Assembly (NCBI GenBank): GCA_042570925.1
Contig: JBHPFX010000001.1
Span: 52,397 to 116,396, forward strand
DNA: 64,000 nt
DNA from: Patescibacteria group bacterium
GTDB lineage: Bacteria; Patescibacteriota; Patescibacteriia; UBA10025
Direction of reading: 5' to 3'
Position numbers and translations under genes: made by a program. Under the pieces are notes generated by a model that was not told the DNA's origin, did no database searches, and was given only the letters and a program-made list of their open reading frames with translations. Positions 6,903 through 64,000 of this stretch are shown here, in pieces; position 1 is the stretch's first letter; the number at the start of each line of letters is the position of its first letter.

Positions 6903-9311
6903 ATGGATGCAGCAAGAAATGCCCAATTAGATAAGTTTATTAAGGAAAGAAAAAAACTTGGCTATAGTAATAAGAGGATCGTTGAAGAGTTGAGTTCGGC
7001 AGGATGGAAAAGGGACGAAATCAAGGAACATATTTCTGATATCGAATATCGTCCATCAGGGCCTTCTTCGAAGATTGCGCCAAATTATTCTGTTGTTACT
7101 ACCTACATTCTTGTTATTCTGATGCTTATTGCAGGTGTTGGGGGAGTATGGTGGGTGGTTCAAGATGTAGCCGGTTTTCCATGGGGAAACAGCAATACAA
7201 ACAGCTCGGGATATACATCTCCGCTTTTTTCGACGCTTTCAGAACAACTGGCAGCACAGTCTTCACTTAAGAAATTTAACAACTACGAAGAAATTAACGA
7301 CTACTTGGAACGGACCGTAGGCCTTGATTATTACGATTCGTATTCGGGATTTGAAATGCAGCGATCAATATCAGTAGATGAAATGGCTCTTCCAATGGCC
7401 GAATTTGATTTGGGGGTCTCGGATCTTAGTTATGGGGGAGTGACTGATTATTCAACAACCAATATTCAGGTCGAAGGAGTAGATGAAGCAGATATCATTA
7501 AAACAGATGGGGAGAATGTGTATGTAGTTTCCAAAGAGAATGTATTTATCATTGATGCATATCCAGCTGGTAATGCAAAAATATTATCAACTATAGCGCT
7601 TCAATCAACCCCGCAGGATATTTACATCAACGGCGATTTTCTGGTGATATATGGGCATGATGATGATATTTACTCACGGCCAGTATTCGACGACTTACCC
7701 CATACAAGTACCAATTACACGTATCTTAAGGTATTTAACATCAAAGATCGCAGCAACCCTAAACAAGTACGAGATCTAGATTTCGAGGGTACATTTGCCA
7801 ACTCACGGATGATTGGGGACTATGTGTATTTTGTCACTTCACAGTATGCATATGTCTATGATGACGCCCCTCTTCCTTTGACGATTGAGGATGACGAATT
7901 GTTACCGACTGATCCCGGTGTTTCTGGCTGTCTATGTCCCGACGTATACTATATTGATGTCCCGTATTATGATTACTCGTTCACCACGGTCACAGCGATC
8001 AATATCCGTGACAACGACGAGGATATCTCCAGCGAAGTCTATCTTCTGGATAACAGTGAAAACATGTATGTCTCGCAGGAAAATATTTACCTCGTATACA
8101 CGAAATACGTAAGTGATATTCAGTTGTCGTTTGAAGTGATGAAAGAAATGGTATTTAGTGATTTAAGCGCTAAGAACCAGCAGCGTATCATTGACATCGA
8201 GGCTGCACCTTCTCATGTTCTTTCGGAAGGAGAAAAGATTTCAAAAGTATACTCGATCGTTTCGCGCTATATAGAGTCGCTTTCTTCTGATGAGCAGGAT
8301 GAGTTTCAAGAATCGCTCGAAGATAGAATGATGAAGAAGTACGACGATATTTCGAAAGAGCTGGAAAAAACTGTTATCCATAAAATTTCCATTGACAAAG
8401 GTGATCTGGAGTATGAGGGAAGCGGAGAAGTTACCGGTCATGTTCTTAATCAATTCTCTATGGATGAGCGAGACGGATATTTCAGAATTGCCACTACAAA
8501 AGGCCGGACGTGGTCCAGTTTTTCTTTCGGTGGCTCATCTACGGAATCATACAGCAACGTGTATGTACTCGATGGTGATTTAGATGTTGTCGGGAAAGTT
8601 GAAAATCTTGCCAAAGATGAAGAAATCTATTCAGCACGGTTTATGCAGGGACGGGTGTACCTGGTTACCTTTAGACAGACTGATCCGCTTTTTGCGATTG
8701 ATCTGACGAATCCAAAAAATCCTAAAGTACTTGGAGAGCTGAAAGTACCCGGTTTTTCATCGTACCTCCATCCGTATGATGACAACTATCTTATCGGAAT
8801 GGGGAAGCAGGCCGATGATAATGGAATTATTACCAGTTTGAAGGTGTCGCTTTTTGATGTTTCTGATGTAGAGAATATGAAAGAAGTTGATACGTATGAA
8901 ATGGGCGGTCGATGGAGCGATTCTCTTGCACTGGATGATCATAAGGCATTTCTTTTCTCAAAGAATAAAAACCTGTTAGTAATCCCGGTGACTCTTCGAA
9001 AAGAGACAGCAACGAACAGTTATGGTGACGTGGAGACAAACGGCGCGATGGTATTTACCATTACGAAGGACGGATTTGAACTAAAAGGCCGTATAGATCA
9101 CTCTGATGGTAGCTCTGATGACAACCTTCTTGATTATGATTCTTATTACAGTTATTACGAGACTTCCGTGAAAAGAAGTATGTACATAGAGGACGTATTG
9201 TACACACTCTCAAATAAGTATCTTATGATGAATGCGCTGGGTGATCTCGAGGAAATAAAAACGATTACGCTGACGCCGGGTGAGGGGGACGACTTTACGA
9301 TTATTCGCTAA
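6903..9311 (+). CDS. membrane-anchored beta-propeller domain protein (PF09826-like)
   Basis: 802 aa with a cytoplasmic N-terminus, one TM segment and a large extracytoplasmic beta-propeller region (…RFMQGRVYLVTFRQTDPLFAIDLTNPKNPKVLGELKVPGFSSYLHPYDDNYLIGMG…). Confidence 0.6.
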   Translation: MDAARNAQLDKFIKERKKLGYSNKRIVEELSSAGWKRDEIKEHISDIEYRPSGPSSKIAPNYSVVTTYILVILMLIAGVGGVWWVVQDVAGFPWGNSNTNSSGYTSPLFSTLSEQLAAQSSLKKFNNYEEINDYLERTVGLDYYDSYSGFEMQRSISVDEMALPMAEFDLGVSDLSYGGVTDYSTTNIQVEGVDEADIIKTDGENVYVVSKENVFIIDAYPAGNAKILSTIALQSTPQDIYINGDFLVIYGHDDDIYSRPVFDDLPHTSTNYTYLKVFNIKDRSNPKQVRDLDFEGTFANSRMIGDYVYFVTSQYAYVYDDAPLPLTIEDDELLPTDPGVSGCLCPDVYYIDVPYYDYSFTTVTAINIRDNDEDISSEVYLLDNSENMYVSQENIYLVYTKYVSDIQLSFEVMKEMVFSDLSAKNQQRIIDIEAAPSHVLSEGEKISKVYSIVSRYIESLSSDEQDEFQESLEDRMMKKYDDISKELEKTVIHKISIDKGDLEYEGSGEVTGHVLNQFSMDERDGYFRIATTKGRTWSSFSFGGSSTESYSNVYVLDGDLDVVGKVENLAKDEEIYSARFMQGRVYLVTFRQTDPLFAIDLTNPKNPKVLGELKVPGFSSYLHPYDDNYLIGMGKQADDNGIITSLKVSLFDVSDVENMKEVDTYEMGGRWSDSLALDDHKAFLFSKNKNLLVIPVTLRKETATNSYGDVETNGAMVFTITKDGFELKGRIDHSDGSSDDNLLDYDSYYSYYETSVKRSMYIEDVLYTLSNKYLMMNALGDLEEIKTITLTPGEGDDFTIIR

Positions 9312-10810: not shown

Positions 10811-10826
10811 GAATAATTAGTAATAG

Positions 10827-10856
10827 AAAACCGCCCGCTCAATGCGGGCGGTTTTA
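10827..10856 (+). terminator. rho-independent terminator
   Basis: The sequence aaaaccgcccgc-tcaat-gcgggcggtttt forms a perfect hairpin followed by a T-run. Confidence 0.75.
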
Positions 10857-10899
10857 TACTTTGCACTACTCATTAAGGAAGATGTTTCTCTTTTCGGTA

Positions 10900-11016
10900 C
10901 CTTCTTTCTGTGACTAGAAAGAAGCAAAGAGTCCTAGGGTTTCCAATTCGCGAGTGTTTATCGTGCTTATTCATCTAGAAAAGGCCCAATAAAAACTCCG
11001 GACCCCAAGTCTAGGA
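10900..11016 (+). repeat. intergenic repeat family, copy A (core CTTCTTTCTGTGACNAGAAAGAAGCAAAGAGTCC…GGTTTCCAATTCGCG…CCGGACCCCA…CTAGG)
   Basis: It shares about 50 nt of near-identical 5' core and a conserved 3' box with copies at 18631 and 41124. A 10-bp hairpin TTCTTTCTG/CAGAAAGAA lies at its 5' end. Confidence 0.7.
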
Positions 11017-11154
11017 GAATTTTGAGATCAATCCATAAACAGTGCTCCTCCCTCGTTTTATTTAATACTCGTATACAATAAATAATTAATATGTTACATT
11101 ATTCTTATAAAATCGTTCACCCAGAGGTGAAAATACAACAGCAGGGGTGCAGCC

Positions 11155-11340
11155 ATGCAGAGACATACCTTAGCTCATCTTTTGGCAGTAGCTCAGGAAA
11201 GGGGTTTTCGGATGGATCGGACTTCACTCCCTGGCACCGCAGAAATGTGGGATCAGGACTGGGAACAAATGTTCCCCCCTGGGACACAGCCCGGGTGTGA
11301 TGTTGAGAAGGCTTCACTACGAAGGCCTCCCCCATACTAA
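11155..11340 (+). CDS. small GC-rich ORF (61 aa), hypothetical
   Basis: The ATG is preceded by an AGGGGTG SD-like sequence and a hairpin terminator follows at 11361–11395. It lies in a GC-rich island, so it could instead be part of a structured RNA. Confidence 0.25.
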   Translation: MQRHTLAHLLAVAQERGFRMDRTSLPGTAEMWDQDWEQMFPPGTQPGCDVEKASLRRPPPY

Positions 11341-11360
11341 CGAATCTATTGTCAAAGAAC

Positions 11361-11395
11361 GGGGAGATGCGATGCGCGTCTCCCCTTGTTTCCTT
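11361..11395 (+). terminator. hairpin terminator (GGGGAGATGC-loop-GCGTCTCCCC + TTGTTTCC)
   Basis: 10-bp stem followed by a T-rich tract. Confidence 0.55.
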
Positions 11396-11485
11396 ATTCA
11401 AACATGGTTGACATGACGATTTCATTAGGATAAGATTCTATAAATTTAGGAAAAACAGTTCTTATCTCTTTTCACGGGAGGTGCT

Positions 11486-11683
11486 ATGAGCACGCCAAAT
11501 GATAGTGACGCAGTTAAGTTGCGTCAAGTCGGCAGAGTGATGGGAACGGGGGAATCTCCTGGAACAACGATCATGGTATGTTCAGGTTCACCCCCAGGAG
11601 ACCTTTTTGGGGGATGTCCTGTAGGATGGAGCGCCAGTTCCGGCTCTATCCCAAAAGCAACTGACGGTGATAGTCAGGAGTAA
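11486..11683 (+). CDS. small GC-rich ORF (65 aa), hypothetical
   Basis: A GGGAGG SD lies 5 nt upstream of the ATG. It is followed at 11718–11755 by a hairpin that is paralogous to the one at 11361. Confidence 0.25.
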   Translation: MSTPNDSDAVKLRQVGRVMGTGESPGTTIMVCSGSPPGDLFGGCPVGWSASSGSIPKATDGDSQE

Positions 11684-11717
11684 GTCCGTTCATCGAACGG
11701 CGACGAGAACTCACAAA

Positions 11718-11755
11718 GGGAGACGCACTGCACGACGCGTCTCCCTGATTTCTTA
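11718..11755. terminator. hairpin terminator (GGGAGACGC-loop-GCGTCTCCC), probably bidirectional
   Basis: 9-bp GC stem, then TGATTTCTT on the + strand. The stop of the minus-strand gene sits at 11753. Confidence 0.55.
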
Positions 11756-17407: not shown

Positions 17408-18607
17408 ATGAAGCTGATCATATCTTTAGTAGTCGTTATGGGGTTTGTGTTTTCCGCACCAGCAGCACAAGCCGCGGTTTTTGATCATACATCCGGAATG
17501 ATTGTTCTCCAGGTGGAGTCTCATGGTGAGGCCTGGTATGTAAATCCACTAACACATCAGCGATCTTATCTCGGACGCTCGGCAGACGCATTTGAACTCA
17601 TGCGGGAGACCGGATTAGGAATTTCGAATACCCATTTGGCCCAAATCCCTGAAGCGGGAAGCGGTGAAGAGGGTGATATTGCGCTACGAGAAAGATTATC
17701 GGGAAGAATATTATTGCAGGTTGAGGAAAACGGTGAAGCTTGGTATGTGTATCCAAGAAATTTACAGCGTTATTATTTAGGCCGTCCTGATGATGCATTT
17801 ACTATCATGAAAAATCTCGGCCTAGGCATTTCAAATGCTCACTTGGCACTGATACCAGCAATAGGCGCACCAGTGAATTCATACGAATTGAGATCAATCG
17901 ATACATCGAGGGGCGTTTTTGAAATTCAAATGATCACTCTCGATCTTTCTAATTCAGTTTTAGAGGTTGTAACAGACACGGCAAATGAATTTGACTGTTC
18001 TGACAATTGTCCTGCAAAATCTTTAGATGAATATATCGAGGTTAATAACGGAATTGCGGGTATGCATGGAACATACTTCTGTCCGCCGGATTATTCCGTA
18101 TGCCAGGGAGAAATTGGTTCGTATTTGTGGCCAGTGTACAATTCAAACCTCGGAAGATTCTTGAATGAAGAACGTCTTGCATACACGACCGGTCCGTTGA
18201 TGGTTTTTGATACGAATAACACGCCATACTTTTTTTATCGTACGGAAGATTTTGGCTCGGTTAAAGAATTCGAAGAGCGCTTTAATACGACAATTCAAGC
18301 TGGTATTTCAAATGGTCCCGCACTTATTTTAAGCGGAGAAAATGTTGTCACTCATGAACCGATGGATGACAAACAGTTGAATACCCGAGGAAATCGGGGA
18401 GGCATCGGAGTAAAAGGTTTGACACTCTACTTATTAATTGCACGAAGTGCGACAGTCCCAGATTTGGCGGCAGTGTTTGAATCTCTAGATGTAGATCATG
18501 CAATGAATTTGGATGGGGGTGGAACGAGTGCATTGTATTTCGACGGTGCATATCGAGTTGGGCCAGGACGTTTGCTCCCAAATGCAATTGTTGTAAGAGC
18601 AAGATAA
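17408..18607 (+). CDS. secreted phosphodiester glycosidase family protein (NAGPA-like) with N-terminal tandem repeats
   Basis: Signal peptide, then two roughly 60-aa repeats (LLQVE.NGEAWYV.P…YLGR..DAF.IM…GLGISN.HLA.IP). The C-terminal domain carries HAMNLDGGGTSALYFDG. Confidence 0.6.
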   Translation: MKLIISLVVVMGFVFSAPAAQAAVFDHTSGMIVLQVESHGEAWYVNPLTHQRSYLGRSADAFELMRETGLGISNTHLAQIPEAGSGEEGDIALRERLSGRILLQVEENGEAWYVYPRNLQRYYLGRPDDAFTIMKNLGLGISNAHLALIPAIGAPVNSYELRSIDTSRGVFEIQMITLDLSNSVLEVVTDTANEFDCSDNCPAKSLDEYIEVNNGIAGMHGTYFCPPDYSVCQGEIGSYLWPVYNSNLGRFLNEERLAYTTGPLMVFDTNNTPYFFYRTEDFGSVKEFEERFNTTIQAGISNGPALILSGENVVTHEPMDDKQLNTRGNRGGIGVKGLTLYLLIARSATVPDLAAVFESLDVDHAMNLDGGGTSALYFDGAYRVGPGRLLPNAIVVRAR

Positions 18608-18630
18608 TTAAAAGATTTCACCTGGTGACA

Positions 18631-18747
18631 CCTTCTTTCTGTGACCAGAAAGAAGCAAAGAGTCCCGGGGTTTCCAATTCGCGGATATTCATCACTCTTT
18701 AATGATCTAGGATTGGCTCAATGGAAACGCCCGGACCCCACCTCTAG
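18631..18747 (+). repeat. intergenic repeat family, copy B
   Basis: CCTTCTTTCTGTGACCAGAAAGAAGCAAAGAGTCCCGGGGTTTCCAATTCGCGG…GGCTCAATGGAAAC…CCGGACCCCACCTCTAG. It lies upstream of ispH, and a TATAAT box follows at about 18766. Confidence 0.7.
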
Positions 18748-18802
18748 TAATGGAATGTGGTGCTAGACTATAATTACATTGGTTGGTACAATATTTTAGC
18801 TT

Positions 18803-33950: not shown

Positions 33951-34027
33951 GGCAGGGTAGCTCAGCTGGTTAGAGCGTGGGACTCATAAGCCCAAGGTCG
34001 TGGGTTCGAACCCCACCCCTGCTACCA
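33951..34027 (+). tRNA. tRNA-Met or tRNA-Ile2 (anticodon CAU)
   Basis: 77 nt cloverleaf GGCAGGGTAGCTCAGCTGGTTAGAGC…CTCATAA…GGTTCGAACCCCACCCCTGCTACCA with an encoded CCA. Confidence 0.85.
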
Positions 34028-34081
34028 AGCAAATAATCTTTTCAAACCTATAACCTAGTATTTAGTAAAAGGGCTTTTTTG

Positions 34082-34158
34082 TGTAGTGGGGGTCGAAGGG
34101 CGCGAGCGAGCGTGGCGCCCCGGTCCGCAGGGGAACCCCACCCCTGCTACCAAGCAAT
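34082..34158 (+). other. tRNA-derived fragment: duplicate of the 3' 25 nt of the CAU tRNA forming an acceptor-stem minihelix (GCAGGGG-AACCCCA-CCCCTGC-TACCA) preceded by a GC hairpin
   Basis: GAACCCCACCCCTGCTACCAAGCAA is exactly repeated about 105 nt downstream of the tRNA. The upstream part is not a cloverleaf. Confidence 0.6.
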
Positions 34159-34365: not shown

Positions 34366-34385
34366 ACTCCGGCAAGATGATTATT

Positions 34386-34560
34386 AATGGTCTGCCAATT
34401 CCTCCGGGGTTTCGCGGTCTTTCGATTACTCAGGATATCGCTCAACCCGTCTTAGCTCCTCGCGAACTGAAGCGGTTCGACATTTCTCACCGTCCTGAAC
34501 GAAGTTGAAGGACAGTTCAGTTCGCTCGTGGCTTCGACCCACCCCGGCTAAAAGATACAA
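34386..34560. ncRNA. candidate structured RNA adjacent to tRNA-Leu (unclassified)
   Basis: Roughly 175 nt of GC-elevated sequence. The termini are complementary (CCGGGGT…ACCCCGG) and there are internal hairpins (CTGAAC…GTTCAG). It contains a 12-nt duplicate of the tRNA-Leu D-arm (TCTGCCAATTCC). There is no ORF. Confidence 0.3.
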
Positions 34561-41065: not shown

Positions 41066-41123
41066 GCATCCGAAGATAGGAACCACTTGATTGGTATTTA
41101 TTAGTTAGAATCCGCTTTTGGTT

Positions 41124-41270
41124 TCTTCTTTCTGTGACCAGAAAGAAGCAAAGAGTCCCGGGGTTTCCAATTCGCGGGTATTTATCATGCTTGATATATC
41201 TAGGAGTGGCTCAATGGAAACCCTCCTCGAGCCCGAGACTCGGAGCCGAGGGCCGGACCCCACCTCTAGG
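41124..41270 (+). repeat. intergenic repeat family, copy C (with internal GC hairpin insertion)
   Basis: TTCTTCTTTCTGTGACCAGAAAGAAGCAAAGAGTCCCGGGGTTTCCAATTCGCGGG…GGCTCAATGGAAACC…[CTCCTCGAGCCCGAGACTCGGAGCCGAGGG]…CCGGACCCCACCTCTAGG. Confidence 0.7.
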
Positions 41271-41635
41271 AGGATTTTATTGAGTGAACTTTTCACGCTG
41301 CTTCACTCAGGATTTAACAGAGCGCCGTGCAGAATATTTAATAAAACTTGACCATATTAGTTGTGGATAAGGGGTCTTTGTAATTGACAAACATTCAAAT
41401 TAATGTCAGAATAATTCCATTATTGCACCTTCGCACTTTCAACAATGCATACTGAACTAAACAGTTCGATCACTAGATCCTTACCGCAACAATAACCGGA
41501 ATTGGGAAAAGCCATGCCAGCATGGCAGAAAGGAGGGTTAGAGTTCTAGAGTAGAGCTTTTTGCATTACCGTAGTACGGTAGGGATCAAGTGAATTCACT
41601 CGAGTGAAACGCTGTTTCAAACGGAGGGTATTACC

Positions 41636-42778
41636 TTGAAGAGGTCAAACCGATTCATTTTACCCGTGATCCTTCTGGTCACAGCCGTTATGACGTTCGG
41701 GACGATGAGCCTGACGTATGCGACGACGACCAAGGACGCGATGAAGATCGAGGTCAACCAAAACGGACCTCCGGTGTCATTCTGTAACGTGCAACACAAT
41801 CCGGCGATCACCGACAACACGACCGCAGTGACGTGCACCGCAAACACAGCCCCGGCCATCGACGAGAAAAAGACGGCCACGTTTGCGACCTGCACGGAAG
41901 GTACGATTGAGCTATCAGCTCCTCCTACTCCCGGCCTGGACGCGACCCGCGCCAGCCCCGACAACTTCTGCCTGGCCAAAGTCGACAATGCCGTGGAGAG
42001 CAATATCGAAGTCTATGACGCGACCGAATACTCCGTGACGAACCGTGCCGGCCCTACGACGACCGCCGAGTGTTCGACCATGGAGAGCAATACCGAAGTC
42101 TACGATGAGACGCCCGTCACCGCCGCGATGAACCGCGCTGGCCCGACAGCAAACTGTGCTGAGAACGTGGCTGAGTGTTCGACCGTGGCGACCGGCGCCC
42201 CTGCCAACCTGGCGACGACTGATTATCCGAACCCCGCGATGAACGGTTCGAGGCAGACGACTGATTATCCGAACCCCGCGATGAACGGTTCGAGGCATAT
42301 GACGGTCATGAAGGTTGACGAGGGCGCGAATCAATCACGTGCTGTTACTGCGACCGCTGACTCGTGGGACGGCACCGATATGTGGACAGTTGAGAAGACC
42401 TGGACGGCGATTGCTGACGAAAATGCGACGCGGACCAACATGAAGGCAGGGCTACCGAACGAACTTGTCGTCGAGCTGACGAGTGGTATCCTGGCCGCCA
42501 ATTCTCGGATGAAAACGACGATCCGTGCGACGGATGTCTCGAAGGCGATGGCGAATGCCGGTGGAATTCAAGACGACGGCGCGATGTGCTGCGGTGCACA
42601 GACCGCCGGTACCAACGTGGAAGATGGCTGGAAACTGACGACGGAAATCGCGGCCGACGCGGCTATGAATACCGTCGTGGAAGAAACAAATCGGGCACAG
42701 AAGCCGGTGATGACGATTACGGACGACGCCAGCTACGCCTATCCGAATCCGTTCAACGCCGGGACGATCGCGGCCTAA
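41636..42778 (+). CDS. GC-rich secreted Thr/Ala/Asn-rich protein with tandem TTDYPNPAMNGSR repeats (probable horizontally acquired)
   Basis: TTG start and a signal peptide (FILPVILLVTAVMTFGTMSLTYA). There are 380 codons with a strong GC3 bias, unlike its neighbours. Overlapping shadow ORFs occur in every frame. It ends …AYPNPFNAGTIAA. Confidence 0.6.
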   Translation: MKRSNRFILPVILLVTAVMTFGTMSLTYATTTKDAMKIEVNQNGPPVSFCNVQHNPAITDNTTAVTCTANTAPAIDEKKTATFATCTEGTIELSAPPTPGLDATRASPDNFCLAKVDNAVESNIEVYDATEYSVTNRAGPTTTAECSTMESNTEVYDETPVTAAMNRAGPTANCAENVAECSTVATGAPANLATTDYPNPAMNGSRQTTDYPNPAMNGSRHMTVMKVDEGANQSRAVTATADSWDGTDMWTVEKTWTAIADENATRTNMKAGLPNELVVELTSGILAANSRMKTTIRATDVSKAMANAGGIQDDGAMCCGAQTAGTNVEDGWKLTTEIAADAAMNTVVEETNRAQKPVMTITDDASYAYPNPFNAGTIAA

Positions 42779-55203: not shown

Positions 55204-56835
55204 TTGTTTAATACAGTACGAAAAAACCTCACTTCTGGGAGGCAAGAAGATAAGCCTATAGACTTTGACTCGCTTCCACAGCTCCTTACTCTTGAACAGG
55301 TAAGTGAGTTTCTTGGTGTACACCCAAATACGCTCAGGAATTGGGATGCAAATGGTAAGTTGCGTGCAGTGAGAGTAGGGAAGCGACGCGACCGTAGATA
55401 TGATAAGAAAGATGTACGCATCCTGTATCTCGCAAAAAACGGATTAGATGATGTTCAGCAAGAACCCGAGGTTGCTGGTGATGAGCCAAAGAAAGAGTTG
55501 GCGCCTGTTAAGAAACCAGTGTTCAATTGGTCAATGGTTCATCTTGTCATTGCCGCACTTTTTCTTCATGTCGCAGTTGCTGCAAATGACACCCCTGGAC
55601 TTGTGCTTGGCACCCAGATTGAGATGTACAGGCTCGAACCCGCTAATTGTACCGGTTGGACAAATGCAGAGCATGCAAAACGAATAAATGCACTGTCAAC
55701 ATCCGCCCTATCTGACTTCAATGAGGGAGTATCTGCCTATTACTCCACATCAAAGCTTTTTCCGGTAGAAGACGATATGGCTGAATCGCTTCAAGCTCCG
55801 GTTTCAGATATCGTGTGTTCCGGTTATCTGTTACCAGAAGATGTATCCACAGAAACAGTGCCGGAATACGTATCATTAAACGAAGCCCGGGTACTCATAT
55901 CAATGGGTGCAAAAAGCTTCAAAGGAAATGAAGACGTTTTGTCATTCTCTTACTCTCTTGATGGACAAACATGGATTCCACTAGATTCTTTCGGAATACT
56001 TGACGAGATGAGCAACTCAACACACGAAGGTTACTGGGCATTTCCAATACGGGTTGATTCTTTTGAAGAAATTTCTCAAATACAAGTAAAAGCCGATTAC
56101 AATGCTGTGCCAGCAATTGAAGAATCGCTGGTATATGTAGACGGAATAATAATTGAAGCTGATATCGGCGAATTGGATAAGACATCAAAGAATATTGTTG
56201 ACAGCGTGAAAGTAGAAAAGAGAGATTACGATGTATCAGAGAATCCTGTTGTATCAATTGATGTTGAGGAGCGCTCAGCCCTGTCATTTATCGGCATAGG
56301 CACCACGGAAAGAACAGTGAAAGAAGCAACTCTTACGAGACCTGACGGAACCCAAAAGATTGTTGCGTTAGAAGAAAAAGAGGTACAGGAAGGGGATATC
56401 AAGCGGGTTGAATACTCTGTGTCAAAAGATGAGCTGGCTCGCGGAGGGGAGTATGAACTGAGCTTTAGCGTCGAGCAGGATGGGGAAGTTGAAATAGTTA
56501 CAAAAAGTTTTTCATGGGGCGTGCTGGCAATAAACCCTGATCAATCTGTATATCGCCCGGGCGATCTTTCAATATTATCGATCGGAGTATTGGATGATAA
56601 GGGGGGTATTGTATGCGATGCAGACATTGAGCTTCTCATCACTGATCCAAATGGAAAAATTCTACCCAAAATGACTACGGAAAATGGCGGTATCGCAGTT
56701 TCCGACAAGTGCCATATCAAGGATATCTACTTCGAACCCGATTATTCAGCGTACTTTCGACCAAAAATTTCCGGTACGTACAATATTCAACTCACCGCAA
56801 CCCACGTGAATGGTACGCATACGATCAGCCAATGA
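55204..56835 (+). CDS. membrane-spanning protein with N-terminal cytoplasmic MerR/excisionase-type HTH and large extracytoplasmic domain
   Basis: HTH_17-like segment (LTLEQVSEFLGVHPNTLRNWDANGKLRAVRVGKRRDRRYDKKDV), one TM helix (WSMVHLVIAALFLHVAVAA) and about 430 aa outside the membrane. The stop overlaps the start of the giant gene (ATGA). Confidence 0.6.
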   Translation: MFNTVRKNLTSGRQEDKPIDFDSLPQLLTLEQVSEFLGVHPNTLRNWDANGKLRAVRVGKRRDRRYDKKDVRILYLAKNGLDDVQQEPEVAGDEPKKELAPVKKPVFNWSMVHLVIAALFLHVAVAANDTPGLVLGTQIEMYRLEPANCTGWTNAEHAKRINALSTSALSDFNEGVSAYYSTSKLFPVEDDMAESLQAPVSDIVCSGYLLPEDVSTETVPEYVSLNEARVLISMGAKSFKGNEDVLSFSYSLDGQTWIPLDSFGILDEMSNSTHEGYWAFPIRVDSFEEISQIQVKADYNAVPAIEESLVYVDGIIIEADIGELDKTSKNIVDSVKVEKRDYDVSENPVVSIDVEERSALSFIGIGTTERTVKEATLTRPDGTQKIVALEEKEVQEGDIKRVEYSVSKDELARGGEYELSFSVEQDGEVEIVTKSFSWGVLAINPDQSVYRPGDLSILSIGVLDDKGGIVCDADIELLITDPNGKILPKMTTENGGIAVSDKCHIKDIYFEPDYSAYFRPKISGTYNIQLTATHVNGTHTISQ

Positions 56836-59800
56836 CTTTGGAGGTTACAGCGTATAAGGACTTTACCGGAGAGATCATTGAGCGAGTTCCGCGTGAATTT
56901 GGCGTCGAAGTGGAGTACGGAGGTGCGAGCAGAGACATAGAAGGTGTACTTGAATTAGTGTGGGACACTTCAATATCTAAGGGAGATACCATCACCCTTG
57001 GTTATACATTTAAATCACCGGAAGTGAGCCCCGCATTGTATCATCTTGGTCCGGCAACAATTGGAGAATGGTCTGAAGGGCGTGAGTGGCAGTTGGCAAT
57101 TGATCCAACATACATGTATCTCTATTGGGATGGAGCCGGTCCGCCTACTGGATGGTCGGTTGTTTCAACATATGATGGTAAATTTGCCCGTGGTGAAACT
57201 GCTGCAAATTTCGGTATAACTAGTGGAAATGCAACTCACACTCCTACCATAGCTACTCAATCGCCTACAAGTCAGCCAGGTACAACAAAATTGGCAAATT
57301 CTGGATTTGGTTATTCAAATGCTTCTGGCACTCACACACACGCTGTTATTGGAACGACAATTGGATCGGCAAACAATCTTCCGGCGTACAGGGATTTAAT
57401 CCTAATTAAGAATGATACTGGAATTCCTGCCACGATCCCTGGTGGTGGTATCGCATTTTTTGATGACGATCCTGGTTTACCTGGGGCGGATTGGACCAGG
57501 CAGAGTGCTCAAGACGCAAAAATGACTCGCACAAATAGCTCGGTCGCAACTGCTGGCTCTGATACCCATACCCATACTATTACCTGGGCTGCACCTGCTA
57601 GTGGTCGAGCGGGGGCTTTTCATGAGGACAATTGTATAAAAGGTGGATCTGCCGTGACCCACGGACATACAGCACCATCAGCTGGTGCGACTACAGGCAT
57701 GTCCGCTCTACCCCCCTATATCGAAGTAATTGTCGGAAAGGCCGATTCAGATACTTCGGTTCCTTCAGGAATAATACCGATGTTTGACGCCGATCCAGGA
57801 GCTGGATGGGATCTACGTTCAGATTCTGGGGATGATTTCTATCAGAACTTTGTTCGAGGGGCAGCTGCGTATAACGGATCATCCCAAGGTGCTACTACGC
57901 ATAATCATGCGCAGGAGACAAGTGGAAACACTGGGTCGGGTGGAAGTGTTAATGGCGGATGTGGAAGTGGAACAGTTACGCTTGCGGGGAGTAATCACAA
58001 TCACACAGAAACAGTTACCTTTACCACAGGTACCGACAACATGCCGGAGTATTGGAACGTCGTATATGCAGAAATGGCGACAACGGCCGATACCGTTTCA
58101 GGGTCTGTGAAGGGGACGGATGAATCAAGCTTTATTGGCAATCCTCCTTGTGATGGTGTGACTGCTGCGGTTTCACTTAAAATAAACGGAGCTGGCACTG
58201 ACACGACGGACTGCGATAACACAACGGGCAATTACGAGTTCTCTGGCCTTACTTTTAGTGCGGGCGATACGGTATCAGTCTACCTAAATAGTAATTCTAC
58301 TGAGAAAGCTAATTTGAATATGGTTATCGGGTCGGCGAACGTCACGGATGCGGACTTATATGAGGAAAAAGTAATAGTGCGTGACGAAAACGATGGAACA
58401 TCCACTATTTTGGATATGGTCGATTATGATAATGATCAAAATTCGACTGATATGCTCTTTGATGCCGATGATCTTGCTACGGATACACTCAGTACCGAAT
58501 CAGGCAAAGAACTTCATATATGGACCGGCGATACGCTCGATCCAAATGGCGATGTAGATACAGGTAGTGATATTCATATTGATGATAGCGCGACAATGAA
58601 TCTCGATACTGCTACGTCGACCATTGGAGGCGATATCGACGTTGATACAAGCGCGACATTGAATGTCAGTGCGAGTGCTACGGTTAATGGAAATGATGTT
58701 ACAACTACCGGAGCGGTAAATCATTCCGCGGGAACTTTTACTATTGGTGATAGCACGACCGAAGACTTTATTGTAAATGGCGGGACGGTAACATTGAGCG
58801 GCGGCACGACAGTCTTAAAGGATGATTTTGACATTAATGGCGGAACGATCACGATCAGCAATACCATGAATATTAATGGAAACTCTGCTGCAATTGTCGA
58901 TCAAGATGGTGGAACTTTAAACATCAATGCCGGAGCTGATGTAAATGCTCTTGGTGCAAATGCTACGTATGCTATTGATGGTGCGAGTACTATCCTAAAT
59001 CTTAATGGCGGATCTTTTGATTTGGGTCAGTATTGGTTTAATAATGAGGGGACGGTTAATCTGAACGGCGGTGATCATAATATCGGGACAGGGGGACAAT
59101 TTCGATTTGGAAATGCCGCAGGAAAGGGGAATGTGATGGACTTCAATATGACTGGTGGGGAGATTACAACGCCAATCATGTATACATTTGATACGAGTAC
59201 GTTAACTACGACAACAGTGACTGGAGGTACTATCAATCTCGGTGTTGACGGAGTCAGCGATGTAATTGGTGAACAAAATACTGATAGTCATGAGTTTTAT
59301 AACTTTGTAATTGAAGAAAATGCGTCGTTTTGGGCATCAAGTACGGTACCTCTCAATCTTGTCGGATCGTTTACCATTAATAATGGAAAATCATTTGATG
59401 CAAACGCGGAGATGATCGTTGCTTCTGGTGGGTGGGTGAATAACGGGACATACACGTATGACACAAGCACAGTGACGCTTCTTGGAGGTAATATCAGCGG
59501 TACATCTGACACAACTTTCTATAACCTGAATATTGGTGATGCAACAACCACCGGGACAGTAACTTTGACCGGCACGGATGATCCGATTGTCAATGGTACG
59601 CTTGATGTTGATGCGGGCGATACTTTAAGCATTGGCGCAAGCCGCACTGTCCAGTCAAATAGTACCGGCTCACTCACTTTAGATGGAACGATATCCGGAG
59701 CAGGGAAACTTATCTATGAGCCAGCAGCCGCGTTCCCGACGTCTGGCACCATTTCTTCCATCCTACGATTTGATACGACAGTCAATAACCAGACAATGGG

Positions 59801-62800
59801 TGCCACGAGAACATACGGCGGGGCAGTGGAAATTTATAACAACAGCGCATCAGCTCGAAGTGTGACCGGAGCTGCAGGTACGATTACCATGTCGTCCACT
59901 CTTGATATTTCGAGGGACGGAGCAGGTGGAGTGACACTTGAACTCAACACGAATGATCCGACTACAATTATTGGGGATGATGTCACTATCGGTGTAGGGA
60001 CCACTCTGTCTGCAAACAGTGCAAATGGAATCACCATGAATGGGAGCTTTACGAATAGCGGGACATTTACGAGTAATAATGGAACCGTTACATTCGGATC
60101 CGGATCACCCGAGAACATTACAACTGGTGGAGGTAGTGGACAATTCTACAATCTTACGTTCGATGGTACAGGCCCATGGACACCGCTAGCAAATGAAATC
60201 AGAGTGGGTGGCGACCTTCACATGGTGGCAGGTACTCTTCAAGGTTCTCAAGATTTATGGGCGTTCGGAGATATAGAATGTAATGGTACATGCGGGACTA
60301 TCACCTTTAGCAATAATTCAGTATTCATTATGGGTGCTGGACAAAATATCGGCACTAATGTAGCTGAGGGAGATGTATGGACATTTCATAATCTTGACTT
60401 TATAGGAGGCAATGTGACATTCAATGGATCTGGGACTGGCACAATTATCGTCAATGGCACTATGCAATTTGTAACAGGAACAGCTGATAACGAAACAAAT
60501 GATCGGAATATTGATGTTGTTGATGTGATAATTGCTGGCGGGACATATCAGGCATCATCATCGGCTACGTTTAAAGTATCGGGTAGCTGGACAAAAAATT
60601 CAGGGACTTTTACCCCAAACAGCGGCACGATTACATTTGATAATGACGGAGCTTCAATAGGGGGTTCTCAAGGTACCAATTTTAATAACCTTACTATTGA
60701 TCCCGCGGCTCCTCATACTAGTCCAGGTACAGTATCAATTGACATTTCTAGTGGCTATATACTCGTTAATGACACATTAAACATTGCATCAAATGATTCG
60801 GTATCGATAGCAGTAAATGATATGCTCACTATCGCTGGGGAAACAGGGTCGATAACACTCAACGGTACTATCGAAGGAAGCGGAATACTCCGCTACTGGC
60901 CAACATCAGGCTTTCCAGATACCGGAACAGTCTCTTCTATTGTTAGATATGATACATCATATGGAACAGGTCACACGATTACAGACCGAACCTATGATGG
61001 AGATGTAGAGTTCGTAGGTTACATTTCAGCTAAGACACAGACTGCAGATGCCGGCACTTTTATCTTTAACGGGGACGTGCTTATTGATTATCTTTCCGCG
61101 TCACATATCGTGGACTTTATCACCAATGATCCCGATGTCACGATCGAAGGATCATTGACCATTGAAGCTTCGAGTGTGTTTCAAGCACCGAGCTCATTGA
61201 CGCTTAATGGTGATTATTCTAACAGTGGGACGTTTACCGATGGCAGTGGAACGGTGACACTCGATGGATCAGGACAACAGACTTTATCAGGCACGATGAC
61301 AGGGGAGTCAGAATTTAATGATTTAACAATTACAAATAACTCGGGAAGTTATGCGGGTTCATGTGGTACTCCAACGTATAGTGTCATCTTCGCAGCTGCC
61401 GCAACTATTAATGGTACCTATGAAATTACGACTGCAGGTGTGAGAGTCCAATACCTTGCCGGAGCTAATTATACCGTAAACGGAGAAATCAATTGGACGG
61501 GTAGCGGAGGGGATAGTAATCTAATAGTTTTTAGAAGCTCAACTACCAGTGTATGGAATCTCATTGTTGATGCTGGGGCTACCCAAACGGCTGTGTCATA
61601 TGTAGATGTTTCTTATTCATATGCGGATGGCGGAGCTACCATTGATGCTGACGACGGTACTAACATCAACTGTCTCAATAACTCCGAATGGGACTTTGAT
61701 GCTCTGCGGAATATTTCGGGTTATGTCAAAGGAACAGACGAGTCAAGTCACATCGGTAATCCTCCATGCGATAATTTAACAAATAATATCGGTCTACGAA
61801 TAAATGGCGGCTCAGAATTTTTAGAAGAATGTTCAAATGCAGGAGAAACTGGAAGTAGGGATTTTTACTTTGCAAATTTGGACGTCGTGCCCGGTGATAA
61901 AATTACGATTTATATAAAAGGCGAAACAGAGAAAGCCAATCTTGTTTTGGTAGCATCAGGAACAGATGTGAATGATCTAGAGCTTTATGAAGATAGAGTT
62001 ATTGTACGAGACGATAATGATGGAACAATGAATGTTATTGATACAAATACATGGGATAACGGCGACGACTCTGCAAATATGCTTTTTACCGCAACTGATG
62101 CATCTCCCGATACGCTCAGTGTTGAGGCCAACTACGAACTGCACGTGTGGACGGGTGATACACTTGATTCGGAGGGGACTATCACGACGCAAGGGACGGG
62201 AGATGTCCATGTAGATGACAATGCGACGATGTATTTTGACAATGCGACGAATACGGTTGCCGATGACATATTTGTGGATGCTGGAGCGATAGCATATATT
62301 GATGCAAATACATTTGTGAATGGGGGTTCCATTACTACTACTTCTACTGGTGTAGTTGATACAAGTTCAGGTACTCCTACAGTTACCATGTTTACATCGG
62401 GTGCGATAGGTGGAGGCAGTGGAGATATCACCATCTATGATCTTGCAACTATAGGGGGTGGGACAACTTCAATAACCGGTACGGGAACGAATACTATTAG
62501 CAACGGAATTTCCGTTGGAGATGGGACTACTTTAGATATCCAACAATCACTTTCAGTTGATAGTGTTGGTTTGGGTGATTTTGCTACAGCTGGTAGTGGA
62601 TCTGTCACCACAACGTCGGGTACTCCACTCGTTACCTTAGGAAGTGGCTGTGACATCGGAGGTGGCTCAGGATCAATTACGTTTCACGATCTTACCTTTG
62701 GTATAGGTACCCATACTTTTAGTTCTGATTTCACGGTAAATAATGACTTAACATTTGGTGCAGGTGGAGTTATTTCAGAATTAACAAGCACTGTGACCAT

Positions 62801-64000
62801 GGCAGGCACTGATGGTACGGGTACGCTGATAGGAGACAATGAACATCTCTATAATCTCACTATTGACCGCCCGGGCTTAGCGACTAATATCTCTCTTTCC
62901 TCATCCGACATCGGAATAACAAACAATCTCGTTGTCGAAACCGATGATACCTTCACAATTGGTACCGGACGTACGGCATATTGGTATGGAGACGGCTTCA
63001 CACTTAATGGAACTATAAGTGGAGATGGAAAGTTACAAGTAGAAACTACTAGTCCTATTGCCACAACTGGAACGTTTTCAGCCGATATATATTATGACGC
63101 GACTGATTATGCAGAAATGCAAATGTCAGCCCGAACGTATGGCGGTGACGTGACGATTTATAATGATCTTGCCCAAGACGTGATTCCCGGAGGCTGTACA
63201 GGGGGTGAGCACATTCCCTACTACAACGATGATAATAAACATTTCGTACAAGTTACCCACGCAATAGGCGAGCAAAAGGTTATCATGCTTGCCGGCTCGC
63301 ATGTCATTTCCGGCAATTTATATATGAATGCAAATGATGACTGCGATATTTGGCTGAGTGGCACTGAATACAATCCAACAGTGACTATCAATGGCAGTAT
63401 CGAATATCTTAGCGCCCCTCTTGATGGTAGAGAAGAAATATACACAGGTGCGTCAAACACCTGGACAGTAAAAAATGATATTAGTATCTCCGTTGGGGAC
63501 TTTAGAGCTGATCCAACGAGTACCCTCGTGCTTGATGGTTCAGCAGACGGCTCAGCCACAATTACGTCGGGTGGTTCAAACACCGAATATGGAAATCTGA
63601 CATTATCCGGGGGAAATATAACGTTTTCAGATAGTTATCATCAAGTTTATGGAAATCTGGACATGACGGGTGCGAGTTCTATTATTCCCGGTTCTTCAGA
63701 TATTTGGATGAGAGGCAGTTCAAAAAATATTATTGGAGCGAATAGGACGCTTTATGACCTAACTATTAATCCGGTTTCTACAAGCACGATCACACTTCAG
63801 AATTCCGATCTTACTGTCTCAAATGAGTTGACGGTGAGTGATGGGGATACTCTGACAATCGCATCAGGCAGGACACTGACTCATCTTGGTCCCGATATCA
63901 TTCTTACCGGATCGCCGGGTGGCACTATCACCGGGGCAGGAACATTACAATTTACGAGTGCATCTGGTGGACCCAGTGCTGATGGAATAATTAGTTCGGT
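56832..64000 (+). CDS. giant repetitive cell-surface protein (partial, >2380 aa; phage-tail-collar-like domains, CarbopepD_reg-like domains and beta-helix-like Gly/Thr/Asn repeats)
   Basis: The frame is continuous from the ATG at 56832 to the window end, which I verified at several points. Only short shadow ORFs occur on the other strand. There are HTH/HNH motif repeats (GTHTHAVIG, SDTHTHTITW, THNHAQE), two copies of a roughly 180-aa module (~58100–58640 and ~61718–62250), and GGTxTLxG repeats. Confidence 0.75.
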   Translation, partial: MTLEVTAYKDFTGEIIERVPREFGVEVEYGGASRDIEGVLELVWDTSISKGDTITLGYTFKSPEVSPALYHLGPATIGEWSEGREWQLAIDPTYMYLYWDGAGPPTGWSVVSTYDGKFARGETAANFGITSGNATHTPTIATQSPTSQPGTTKLANSGFGYSNASGTHTHAVIGTTIGSANNLPAYRDLILIKNDTGIPATIPGGGIAFFDDDPGLPGADWTRQSAQDAKMTRTNSSVATAGSDTHTHTITWAAPASGRAGAFHEDNCIKGGSAVTHGHTAPSAGATTGMSALPPYIEVIVGKADSDTSVPSGIIPMFDADPGAGWDLRSDSGDDFYQNFVRGAAAYNGSSQGATTHNHAQETSGNTGSGGSVNGGCGSGTVTLAGSNHNHTETVTFTTGTDNMPEYWNVVYAEMATTADTVSGSVKGTDESSFIGNPPCDGVTAAVSLKINGAGTDTTDCDNTTGNYEFSGLTFSAGDTVSVYLNSNSTEKANLNMVIGSANVTDADLYEEKVIVRDENDGTSTILDMVDYDNDQNSTDMLFDADDLATDTLSTESGKELHIWTGDTLDPNGDVDTGSDIHIDDSATMNLDTATSTIGGDIDVDTSATLNVSASATVNGNDVTTTGAVNHSAGTFTIGDSTTEDFIVNGGTVTLSGGTTVLKDDFDINGGTITISNTMNINGNSAAIVDQDGGTLNINAGADVNALGANATYAIDGASTILNLNGGSFDLGQYWFNNEGTVNLNGGDHNIGTGGQFRFGNAAGKGNVMDFNMTGGEITTPIMYTFDTSTLTTTTVTGGTINLGVDGVSDVIGEQNTDSHEFYNFVIEENASFWASSTVPLNLVGSFTINNGKSFDANAEMIVASGGWVNNGTYTYDTSTVTLLGGNISGTSDTTFYNLNIGDATTTGTVTLTGTDDPIVNGTLDVDAGDTLSIGASRTVQSNSTGSLTLDGTISGAGKLIYEPAAAFPTSGTISSILRFDTTVNNQTMGATRTYGGAVEIYNNSASARSVTGAAGTITMSSTLDISRDGAGGVTLELNTNDPTTIIGDDVTIGVGTTLSANSANGITMNGSFTNSGTFTSNNGTVTFGSGSPENITTGGGSGQFYNLTFDGTGPWTPLANEIRVGGDLHMVAGTLQGSQDLWAFGDIECNGTCGTITFSNNSVFIMGAGQNIGTNVAEGDVWTFHNLDFIGGNVTFNGSGTGTIIVNGTMQFVTGTADNETNDRNIDVVDVIIAGGTYQASSSATFKVSGSWTKNSGTFTPNSGTITFDNDGASIGGSQGTNFNNLTIDPAAPHTSPGTVSIDISSGYILVNDTLNIASNDSVSIAVNDMLTIAGETGSITLNGTIEGSGILRYWPTSGFPDTGTVSSIVRYDTSYGTGHTITDRTYDGDVEFVGYISAKTQTADAGTFIFNGDVLIDYLSASHIVDFITNDPDVTIEGSLTIEASSVFQAPSSLTLNGDYSNSGTFTDGSGTVTLDGSGQQTLSGTMTGESEFNDLTITNNSGSYAGSCGTPTYSVIFAAAATINGTYEITTAGVRVQYLAGANYTVNGEINWTGSGGDSNLIVFRSSTTSVWNLIVDAGATQTAVSYVDVSYSYADGGATIDADDGTNINCLNNSEWDFDALRNISGYVKGTDESSHIGNPPCDNLTNNIGLRINGGSEFLEECSNAGETGSRDFYFANLDVVPGDKITIYIKGETEKANLVLVASGTDVNDLELYEDRVIVRDDNDGTMNVIDTNTWDNGDDSANMLFTATDASPDTLSVEANYELHVWTGDTLDSEGTITTQGTGDVHVDDNATMYFDNATNTVADDIFVDAGAIAYIDANTFVNGGSITTTSTGVVDTSSGTPTVTMFTSGAIGGGSGDITIYDLATIGGGTTSITGTGTNTISNGISVGDGTTLDIQQSLSVDSVGLGDFATAGSGSVTTTSGTPLVTLGSGCDIGGGSGSITFHDLTFGIGTHTFSSDFTVNNDLTFGAGGVISELTSTVTMAGTDGTGTLIGDNEHLYNLTIDRPGLATNISLSSSDIGITNNLVVETDDTFTIGTGRTAYWYGDGFTLNGTISGDGKLQVETTSPIATTGTFSADIYYDATDYAEMQMSARTYGGDVTIYNDLAQDVIPGGCTGGEHIPYYNDDNKHFVQVTHAIGEQKVIMLAGSHVISGNLYMNANDDCDIWLSGTEYNPTVTINGSIEYLSAPLDGREEIYTGASNTWTVKNDISISVGDFRADPTSTLVLDGSADGSATITSGGSNTEYGNLTLSGGNITFSDSYHQVYGNLDMTGASSIIPGSSDIWMRGSSKNIIGANRTLYDLTINPVSTSTITLQNSDLTVSNELTVSDGDTLTIASGRTLTHLGPDIILTGSPGGTITGAGTLQFTSASGGPSADGIISS

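Follow-up and report, generated by a model that had tools for sequence, protein, structure and literature searches.

A small structured intergenic repeat family in a Patescibacterium, tentatively read as spread by insertion and now under selection

The DNA described here is a stretch of 64,000 nucleotides (nt) of contig JBHPFX010000001.1, below called the window, from a Patescibacterium. Its IspH protein is 100% identical to one labelled Patescibacteria group bacterium and has its next relatives in Ca. Kerfeldbacteria; the host is placed near that lineage. Genomes of Patescibacteria are tiny and poor in repeats and in described regulators. The genes of the window are housekeeping genes. Three of the gaps between them contain one copy each (A, B and C) of a short structured non-coding element, always on the + strand and oriented like the adjoining genes. 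The cores lie at 10899-11017 (copy A), 18630-18747 (copy B) and 41123-41272 (copy C); the cores of B and C as listed in Table 1 run a few nucleotides further. The flanking genes (liaF-like, NAGPA-like, ispH, trxB, a small open reading frame (ORF), a secreted protein) have no gene class in common. According to consensus scans, all three copies stand 5' of the promoter-like site of the next gene.

A preliminary description of the sequence had proposed a three-copy intergenic family with conserved orientation, and this was borne out. A 34-nt pattern of the 5' part, CTTCTTTCTGTGACYAGAAAGAAGCAAAGAGTCC, has exactly three matches in the window, at 10901, 18632 and 41125, all on the + strand, and none of 100 shuffled sequences was matched. 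The conserved 3' box, CCGGACCCCANNTCTAG, was found at all three copies (10998, 18731 and 41253; 0.06 matches are expected by chance). Scanning each position of the window with a covariance model derived from the copies returned A, B and C only, and by self-comparison the window has no other substantial family of dispersed repeats. The conserved unit is larger than the 117 nt first described; the core measures about 120-150 nt, and about 175 nt if weaker flanks are included. For copy A, the block shared with a sister genome (see below) extends from about 10871 to 11047.

In the alignment of the copies the element starts with P1, a 10-bp hairpin CTTCTTTCTG-TGAC-CAGAAAGAAG. Initially described as perfect in all copies, it is so in B and C, and copy A has a G-U loop-closing pair. 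A short, A-rich linker, CAAAGAGU, leads to P2, a long-range helix CCGGGGUUUCCA / UGGAAAC(C)CCGG around a variable AT-rich loop of about 45 nt. The 5' arm of P2 is GC-rich (CCGGGGTTTCCA), the 3' arm reads TGGAAAC(C)CCGG, and the stretch between them contains TTCGCG and ATCTAGGA and tolerates an extra hairpin. The long-range pairing suggested earlier for B and C, GGTTTCCA / TGGAAACC, is formed in these two copies and is degenerate in A. The tail of the element, ACCCCA-NN-TCTAGGAG(G), also written CCGGACCCCA-NN-TCTAG(GAG), is single-stranded and, as ACCCCA-NN-UCUAGGAG(G), resembles a ribosome-binding site. The GC-rich hairpin insertion reported for copy C is present, with a length of 29 nt. It forms a stem-loop of its own that leaves P2 intact, and occurs once in the window. 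As the same insert, with a 2-nt loop indel, is found in a truncated copy of the sister genome, it is older than the split of the two genomes.

The sister genome, Logan assembly SRR22387827, has contigs syntenic with the window (L081 and L087) and proteins that are approximately 86-93% identical (about 90%). Four-fold degenerate sites of seven flanking genes (n = 879) are 57.5% identical and served as the neutral yardstick. Copy A is found at the orthologous sister site (covariance model 158 bits). The two orthologues are identical at 104 of 117 positions (89%; binomial P ~1e-13 versus neutral sites), and the conserved block is sharply bounded (Table 1). Six polarised changes are specific to the window copy; five are G-to-A or C-to-T, and the sixth (column 95) is T-to-C. 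Several of them weaken P2, but the total change is still several-fold below the neutral expectation. Overall, the rate of change in resident copies is 4-7 times below that of neutral sites.

The sister genome lacks copy B; there, 10 nt separate the stop codon of the NAGPA-like gene from the ATG of ispH (L081 10024-10039), versus 195 nt in the window. One possible TA target duplication was noted at copy B, from a single filled/empty pair (window 18604-18790 versus L081 10024-10039) with flanks too diverged to place the ends. The sister ispH starts 10 nt after the NAGPA-like stop codon with no evident ribosome-binding site. The TATAAT box described between copy B and ispH was located at 18769-18774; since the 195-nt spacer brings such promoter-like sequences, the insertion may have altered the expression of ispH. 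At the sister site 3' of trxB lies a full but diverged copy (V, L087 6696-6832; 67.7 bits), and a 5'-truncated copy (L087 6894-6995) follows it after about 65 nt. The truncated copy corresponds to the 3' half of copy C, including the GC hairpin insert, and is identical to it at 86 of 102 positions (84%; binomial P ~6e-9). Multiple dispersed non-coding copies thus occur with presence/absence differences between closely related genomes.

The element is structured, as had been proposed. Four of the five full copies have folding z-scores of about -2.7 to -3.5 versus shuffled sequences, and the L081 orthologue of copy A has -1.8. The helices being palindromes in the DNA, either strand folds. The four near-identical copies show no compensatory change. 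In copy V, P1 is replaced by TACTTTTTG-AGAT-CAAAAAGTA, a 9-bp hairpin at the same place. Two or three of its pairs differ in both partners, among them two internal ones (U-A to A-U and C-G to U-A). The base of P2 is changed in V from CCGG/CCGG to CUGG/CCAG, with one further C-G to U-A change. Folded independently of the model, V adopts the same P1 and P2 architecture. In the model-based alignment six pairs show double changes, versus 1.6 in shuffles and none in slid controls, and paired cells amount to 94.6%. In the strict sense there is thus covariation beyond the shared primary sequence, in both helices, but it is thin, all double changes being in the one diverged copy. A further, outer pairing of the linker with the GGAG-AUUUU tail was also considered; it forms in V and copy C, not in copy B or the L081 copy A, and was not adopted.

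The distribution of the element appears to be narrow. Besides the sister genome, the search of relatives covered about 160 kb of syntenic DNA from genomes at 71-75% identity, in which the covariance model found no copy, and blastn self-comparison of 42 kb of one of these lineages (L082 plus L093) revealed no analogous repeat family. GTDB loci selected by IspH are at most 59% identical and were uninformative. Exact and degenerate DNA pattern scans gave no match in GTDB genomes, JGI metagenomes and IMG/VR, and blastn found no match in phages and plasmids. With Rfam 15 only three tRNAs pass the gathering threshold in the window; permissive scans of copies A, B and C and of the sister copies gave chance-level matches only (E >= 0.1, far below gathering), so that no known family is indicated. 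The literature search for patescibacterial repeats and structured RNAs brought up no relevant work. To our knowledge, almost nothing is known of non-coding RNAs in this phylum beyond rRNA and tRNA introns.

Several other identities were considered and rejected. Coding function, already denied in the preliminary description, is contradicted by 1-nt indels between the copies; moreover, no candidate frame on either strand is free of stops and frameshifts in all copies. A - strand frame, RELETPGLFASFWSQKE, is shared by B and C and has a stop in A and a stop or frameshift in V; mini-ORFs that follow GGAG on the + strand comprise 2 to 24 codons and are unrelated between copies and orthologues. A type I toxin-antitoxin locus was rejected for the same broken frames and the lack of a conserved small ORF. 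An 8-mer, ACCCCACC, is common to the element and the 3' end of tRNA-Met, which is within chance, and neither ARAGORN nor Rfam detected a tRNA-like fold. Inspection by eye of P1 and the loop gave no convincing match to parS, CIRCE, LexA, Fur or IHF-type sites. An integron attC site does not fit, as the P2 arms GGTTTCC ... GGAAACC have a polarity opposite to that of the R''/L'' ... L'/R' cores (RYYYAAC ... GTTRRRY), nor does a cassette array, the copies being 7.7 and 22.5 kb apart among housekeeping genes with no integrase. For an element derived from the insertion sequences (IS) IS200/IS605, or a REP sequence, P1 would need a counterpart at the 3' end, which it does not have, and no Y1 transposase domain was found in the window. 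When the ends of all copies were read for terminal inverted repeats, at most the 5-nt AT-rich pair ATTAA/TTAAT was found, at inconsistent distances; the inverted pairs within the element are the internal P1 and P2 helices. The element is not a classical miniature inverted-repeat transposable element (MITE).

The reading preferred here, to which a probability of roughly 0.4 is given, is that of a lineage-specific, small, structured dispersed repeat of the ERIC/BOX kind that multiplied through insertion at new sites and is at present subject to selection. ERIC, the enterobacterial repetitive intergenic consensus, is about 127 bp long; BOX and RUP are pneumococcal elements. Filled and empty sites, a full copy in tandem with a truncated one, a nested hairpin, restriction to one small clade and the lack of a link to neighbouring genes are hallmarks of a repeat spread by insertion. 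Strong purifying selection on a resident copy, together with compensated helices, indicates that the copies do something. The family would have spread into permissive, fast-changing intergenic gaps, with no cognate enzyme in view. Selection would then keep a single-strand fold, most probably that of the + strand RNA, with the UCUAGGAG motifs exposed. Such an RNA may serve as a structural module, e.g. in processing or stability, or alternatively as a protein-binding platform via its two UCUAGGAG motifs.

The likeness to ERIC, BOX and RUP comprises a length of 100-200 nt, strictly intergenic non-coding copies with a possible stable stem-loop, size variants that arise by internal insertion or truncation (here the 29-nt insert and the 5'-truncated copy), sites occupied in one genome but vacant in a near relative, unusually conserved copies, and no preference for a particular class of neighbouring gene. 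There is no sequence similarity to these elements, however. Whereas ERIC is one long imperfect palindrome and BOX a boxA-boxB-boxC array, the present element combines a short perfect hairpin, a separate long-range helix and a single-stranded tail that resembles a Shine-Dalgarno (SD) sequence. Further differences are the single orientation of all copies seen, the Patescibacterium host with its small genome, and that co-transcription is not evident. MITEs such as the Correia elements of Neisseria are likewise small, non-coding and dispersed, with insertion polymorphism and structured transcripts, but of their defining features terminal inverted repeats were looked for here and not found, and target-site duplication is limited to the possible TA at copy B; no parent IS was seen in the window or in about 52 kb of the sister genome, and the resident copy is strongly constrained. 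IS200/IS605-derived elements and REP/BIME sequences also bear hairpins, have no inverted termini and are strand-specific; GC skew is positive across the window, so that all copies are on the probable leading strand, although this orientation bias concerns three sites and carries little weight. The ends of the element differ from them in having no similar sub-terminal hairpins, there is no REP unit of 20-40 nt, and no Y1 transposase or RAYT was seen. By sequence and architecture the element is a new family within a known general kind, that of small structured dispersed repeats or multi-copy small RNAs.

A number of observations weigh against this reading as an insertion-spread repeat. It has no terminal inverted repeats and no demonstrable target-site duplication, and no transposase, integrase or other mobility gene was found in the window or in about 52 kb of sister loci. 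The strong conservation, which includes the copy-specific 30-nt 3' extension (90%), is unlike that of inert repeats and suits a functional gene at least equally well. Copy A follows a good terminator and all copies precede promoter-like sites, so that co-transcription with the neighbours is not evident. The dataset comprises about 5.5 copies from two genomes. Covariation is thin, since all compensatory changes come from the one sequence V, and part of the count of double changes rests on an alignment fitted to the model. Counts of G-U versus A-C combinations (about 3 versus 4) do not identify the folded strand.

The main rival, though somewhat unlikely, is a set of paralogous genes for trans-acting small RNAs, each a unit of about 150-180 nt in which P1, P2 and the tail would form the scaffold. 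Specificity for targets or partners would reside in the variable loop and in the 3' extension peculiar to each copy; the pair of UCUAGGAG motifs could imitate ribosome-binding sites or titrate a protein that binds RNA. This accounts better than a dispersed repeat for the sharply delimited block of about 10871-11047, with unalignable DNA on either side, and for the position of copy A between an upstream terminator and a downstream promoter-like site, a place for an independent gene; copies B and C also lie before a promoter-like site. Conservation far above neutral, including 27/30 in the copy-specific 3' extension, and the compensatory changes that keep the helices in the diverged paralogue agree with it, as does a short hairpin based on TTGAGT, with different partners, that follows copies C, C' and V. 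Yet consensus scans, for a phylum whose promoter rules are not established, detected no sigma-70-like promoter site upstream of any copy on either strand, and no hairpin-plus-U terminator after the copies, apart from one weak example after the truncated sister copy. The spacer taken up by copy B measures 10 nt in the sister genome, which requires an insertion rather than an ordinary gene duplication. The strand cannot be assigned. A core regulator would not usually be missing from relatives at 71-75% identity, whereas for young small RNAs this is nothing uncommon. Among known families, Qrr, LhrC, the csRNAs and the GGA-rich RsmX/Y/Z type are similar in consisting of paralogues of about 100-200 nt that stand alone between genes and combine a common scaffold with variable parts; RNAs that titrate CsrA/RsmA also have repeated (A)GGA motifs. 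The present element differs from them by the lack of a recognisable promoter or intrinsic terminator, by one copy inside an operon spacer and by having two conserved GGA motifs only, with no CsrA gene in view.

It is also unlikely that the copies represent a new, selectively maintained class of structured non-coding RNA limited to a clade, related to Kerfeldbacteria, within the candidate phyla radiation, with P1 and P2 as the common scaffold, an anti-SD-like CACCUCU beside an SD-like AGGAGG in the tail, and a copy-specific 3' extension that is conserved between orthologues. If true, such a class could have translation or an RNA-binding protein as its target in trans, in a host for which very few regulators are known, and could also propagate as a mobile RNA gene.

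An improbable explanation is that the element acts as DNA, P1 (a perfect 10+10 palindrome) and/or P2 serving as the binding site of a protein or as a site of recombination or attachment, and marking gaps of gene gain and loss. This is a weaker form of the earlier idea of a scar or border of a mobile element with GC-rich cargo. All copies do lie in gaps that vary among relatives (liaF to ferric reductase, NAGPA to ispH, trxB to topA), A and C precede lineage-specific genes of higher GC content, copy A is outside any evident transcription unit with no promoter-like site before any copy, and a dimeric binding site would also show symmetric changes in a palindrome. However, neither island has a second full or partial copy or core motif at its far end, no recombinase is nearby, copy B has no cargo, and the same gaps vary in relatives that have no element; the islands are ancestral, being present in the sister genome as well. 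The stronger form of the idea, a border of a cargo-carrying element, is not supported. About 135 nt of constrained sequence with a long-range helix and a tolerated hairpin insert far exceed the need of a binding or crossover site, and the different P1 sequence of V would not be recognised by one protein. The islands had been described as immediately downstream of A and C. They begin 140-360 nt further on, beyond the promoter-like sites, and consist of ordinary genes for proteins (from 11156 onward small ORFs, and at 41636-42778 the ORF of a secreted protein), and are thus not non-coding cargo.

Very improbable is the cis-acting leader or riboswitch-like control also suggested earlier, in which the fold would sequester or release the GGAG tail and so control the downstream gene: an SD-like GGAG(G) ends the tail in five of six copies, with TTG or ATG 4-6 nt later in four, and the orientation is that of the downstream genes, but the ORFs that follow are the short unrelated ones mentioned above, the real downstream genes lie 55-360 nt further with promoter-like sites and SD sequences of their own and are functionally unrelated, ispH of the sister genome has no element, and no Rfam cis-regulatory family matches.

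Traces of spread (occupied and vacant sites; copies that are truncated, in tandem or nested), combined with strong purifying selection and compensated helices, make the family a testable candidate functional RNA module of Patescibacteria, and an example of how a small repeat can persist in a streamlined genome. Its value is limited by the narrow distribution, over two closely related metagenomic genomes. The positions of the copies and of nearby features are summarised in Table 1.

Table 1. Copies of the element, their parts and neighbouring features (positions in the window unless given for L081; identities are to the L081 orthologous region)
Feature	Position	Strand	Remarks
Copy A, neighbouring genes		+	upstream liaF-like; downstream small conserved ORF from 11156
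Spacer before copy A	10811-10870		43% identity
Terminator-like hairpin and T-run of liaF-like gene	10835-10851	+	between liaF-like gene and copy A
Copy A, full block	10871-11047	+	covariance model 145 bits; orthologue L081 1364-1498
Copy A, 5' extension	10871-10898		20/28 identical
Copy A, core	10899-11017	+	105/119 identical
Copy A, P1	10901-10910 with 10915-10924	+	loop TGAC
Copy A, P2 arms	5' 10933-10945; 3' 10990-11001	+	
Copy A, tail ACCCCAAGTCTAGGAG	11002-11017	+	
Copy A, copy-specific 3' extension	11018-11047	+	27/30 identical
Region after copy A	11048-11155		50% identity
Promoter-like site of gene after copy A	11086-11113		consensus scan
Copy B, neighbouring genes		+	upstream NAGPA-like phosphodiester glycosidase; downstream ispH
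Copy B, presumed inserted stretch	~18604-18786	+	ends uncertain; comparison with empty sister site
Copy B, core	18630-18752	+	covariance model 154 bits
Copy B, P1	18632-18655	+	
Copy B, P2 arms	5' 18665-18676; 3' 18722-18734	+	
Copy B, 3' box	18731-18747	+	
Promoter-like site TAGACT-17-TACAAT	18764-18792	+	overlaps TATAAT 18769-18774; between copy B and ispH, in stretch without sister counterpart
Copy C, neighbouring genes		+	upstream trxB; downstream 58-61% GC ORF with signal peptide, 41636-42778
Copy C, weaker 5' extension	from ~41104	+	
Copy C, core	41123-41275	+	covariance model 153.8 bits
Copy C, P1	41125-41148	+	
Copy C, P2 arms	5' 41158-41169; 3' 41215-41223 plus 41253-41256	+	
Copy C, GC-rich hairpin insert	41224-41252	+	29 nt, within P2 3' arm; alignment gap and fold
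Copy C, 3' box and GGAGG	41253-41274	+	
Copy C, 3' extension	to ~41305	+	hairpin GAGTGAA/TTCACTC
Promoter-like site TTGACA-17-CAGAAT, preceded by TG	41384-41412	+	secreted-protein gene; ~110 nt 3' of copy C; kept in sister genome

The GC-rich island after copy A is formed by two small + strand ORFs, 11156-11341 and 11487-11684, of 61 and 65 amino acids (aa). The first is kept in the sister genome (MQR..MWDQDWEQMFP..GC..EKAS). A listed 102-aa ORF on the - strand, 11117-11425, is probably spurious. Similar GC-rich hairpins at 11361-11385 and 11718-11745 (GGGGAGATGCG..CGCGTCTCCCC and GGGAGACGCAC..GCGTCTCCC) border the small-ORF region, and a related hairpin is found at the matching sister place (L081 ~2268-2292); these hairpins are probably terminators of common sequence.

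The secreted-protein gene after copy C encodes 380 aa with a signal-peptide-like N-terminus and has a G+C content of 58-61%, versus 42% for the genome. It contains an exact 42-nt tandem repeat (42214-42297) and has no Pfam match. Its 5' leader of about 250 nt (41384-41635; L087 ~7040-7280) runs from the TTGACA-17-CAGAAT promoter-like site and has three hairpins, GCCATG..CATGGC, TACCGTAGTACGGTA and TCACTCGAGTGA, which are kept between the genomes well above neutral. The leader has no Rfam match and may be a cis-regulatory RNA. The gap between trxB and topA is a variable region, as it holds zero to four different hypothetical genes in related genomes.

Elsewhere in the window, the last 25 nt of the second tRNA-Met gene (34008-34032) are copied exactly 125 nt downstream (34133-34157), with GC-rich filler between, and part of the end of the neighbouring tRNA-Leu gene (- strand) is duplicated just past that gene at ~34385-34405. 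Both duplications resemble what integrative elements leave behind of their attachment sites at a tRNA hot spot. The last 7 kb of the window list no long ORFs because one + strand frame, open from 56646 to 64000, runs off the end of the window; with at least 2451 aa it represents a giant protein gene.

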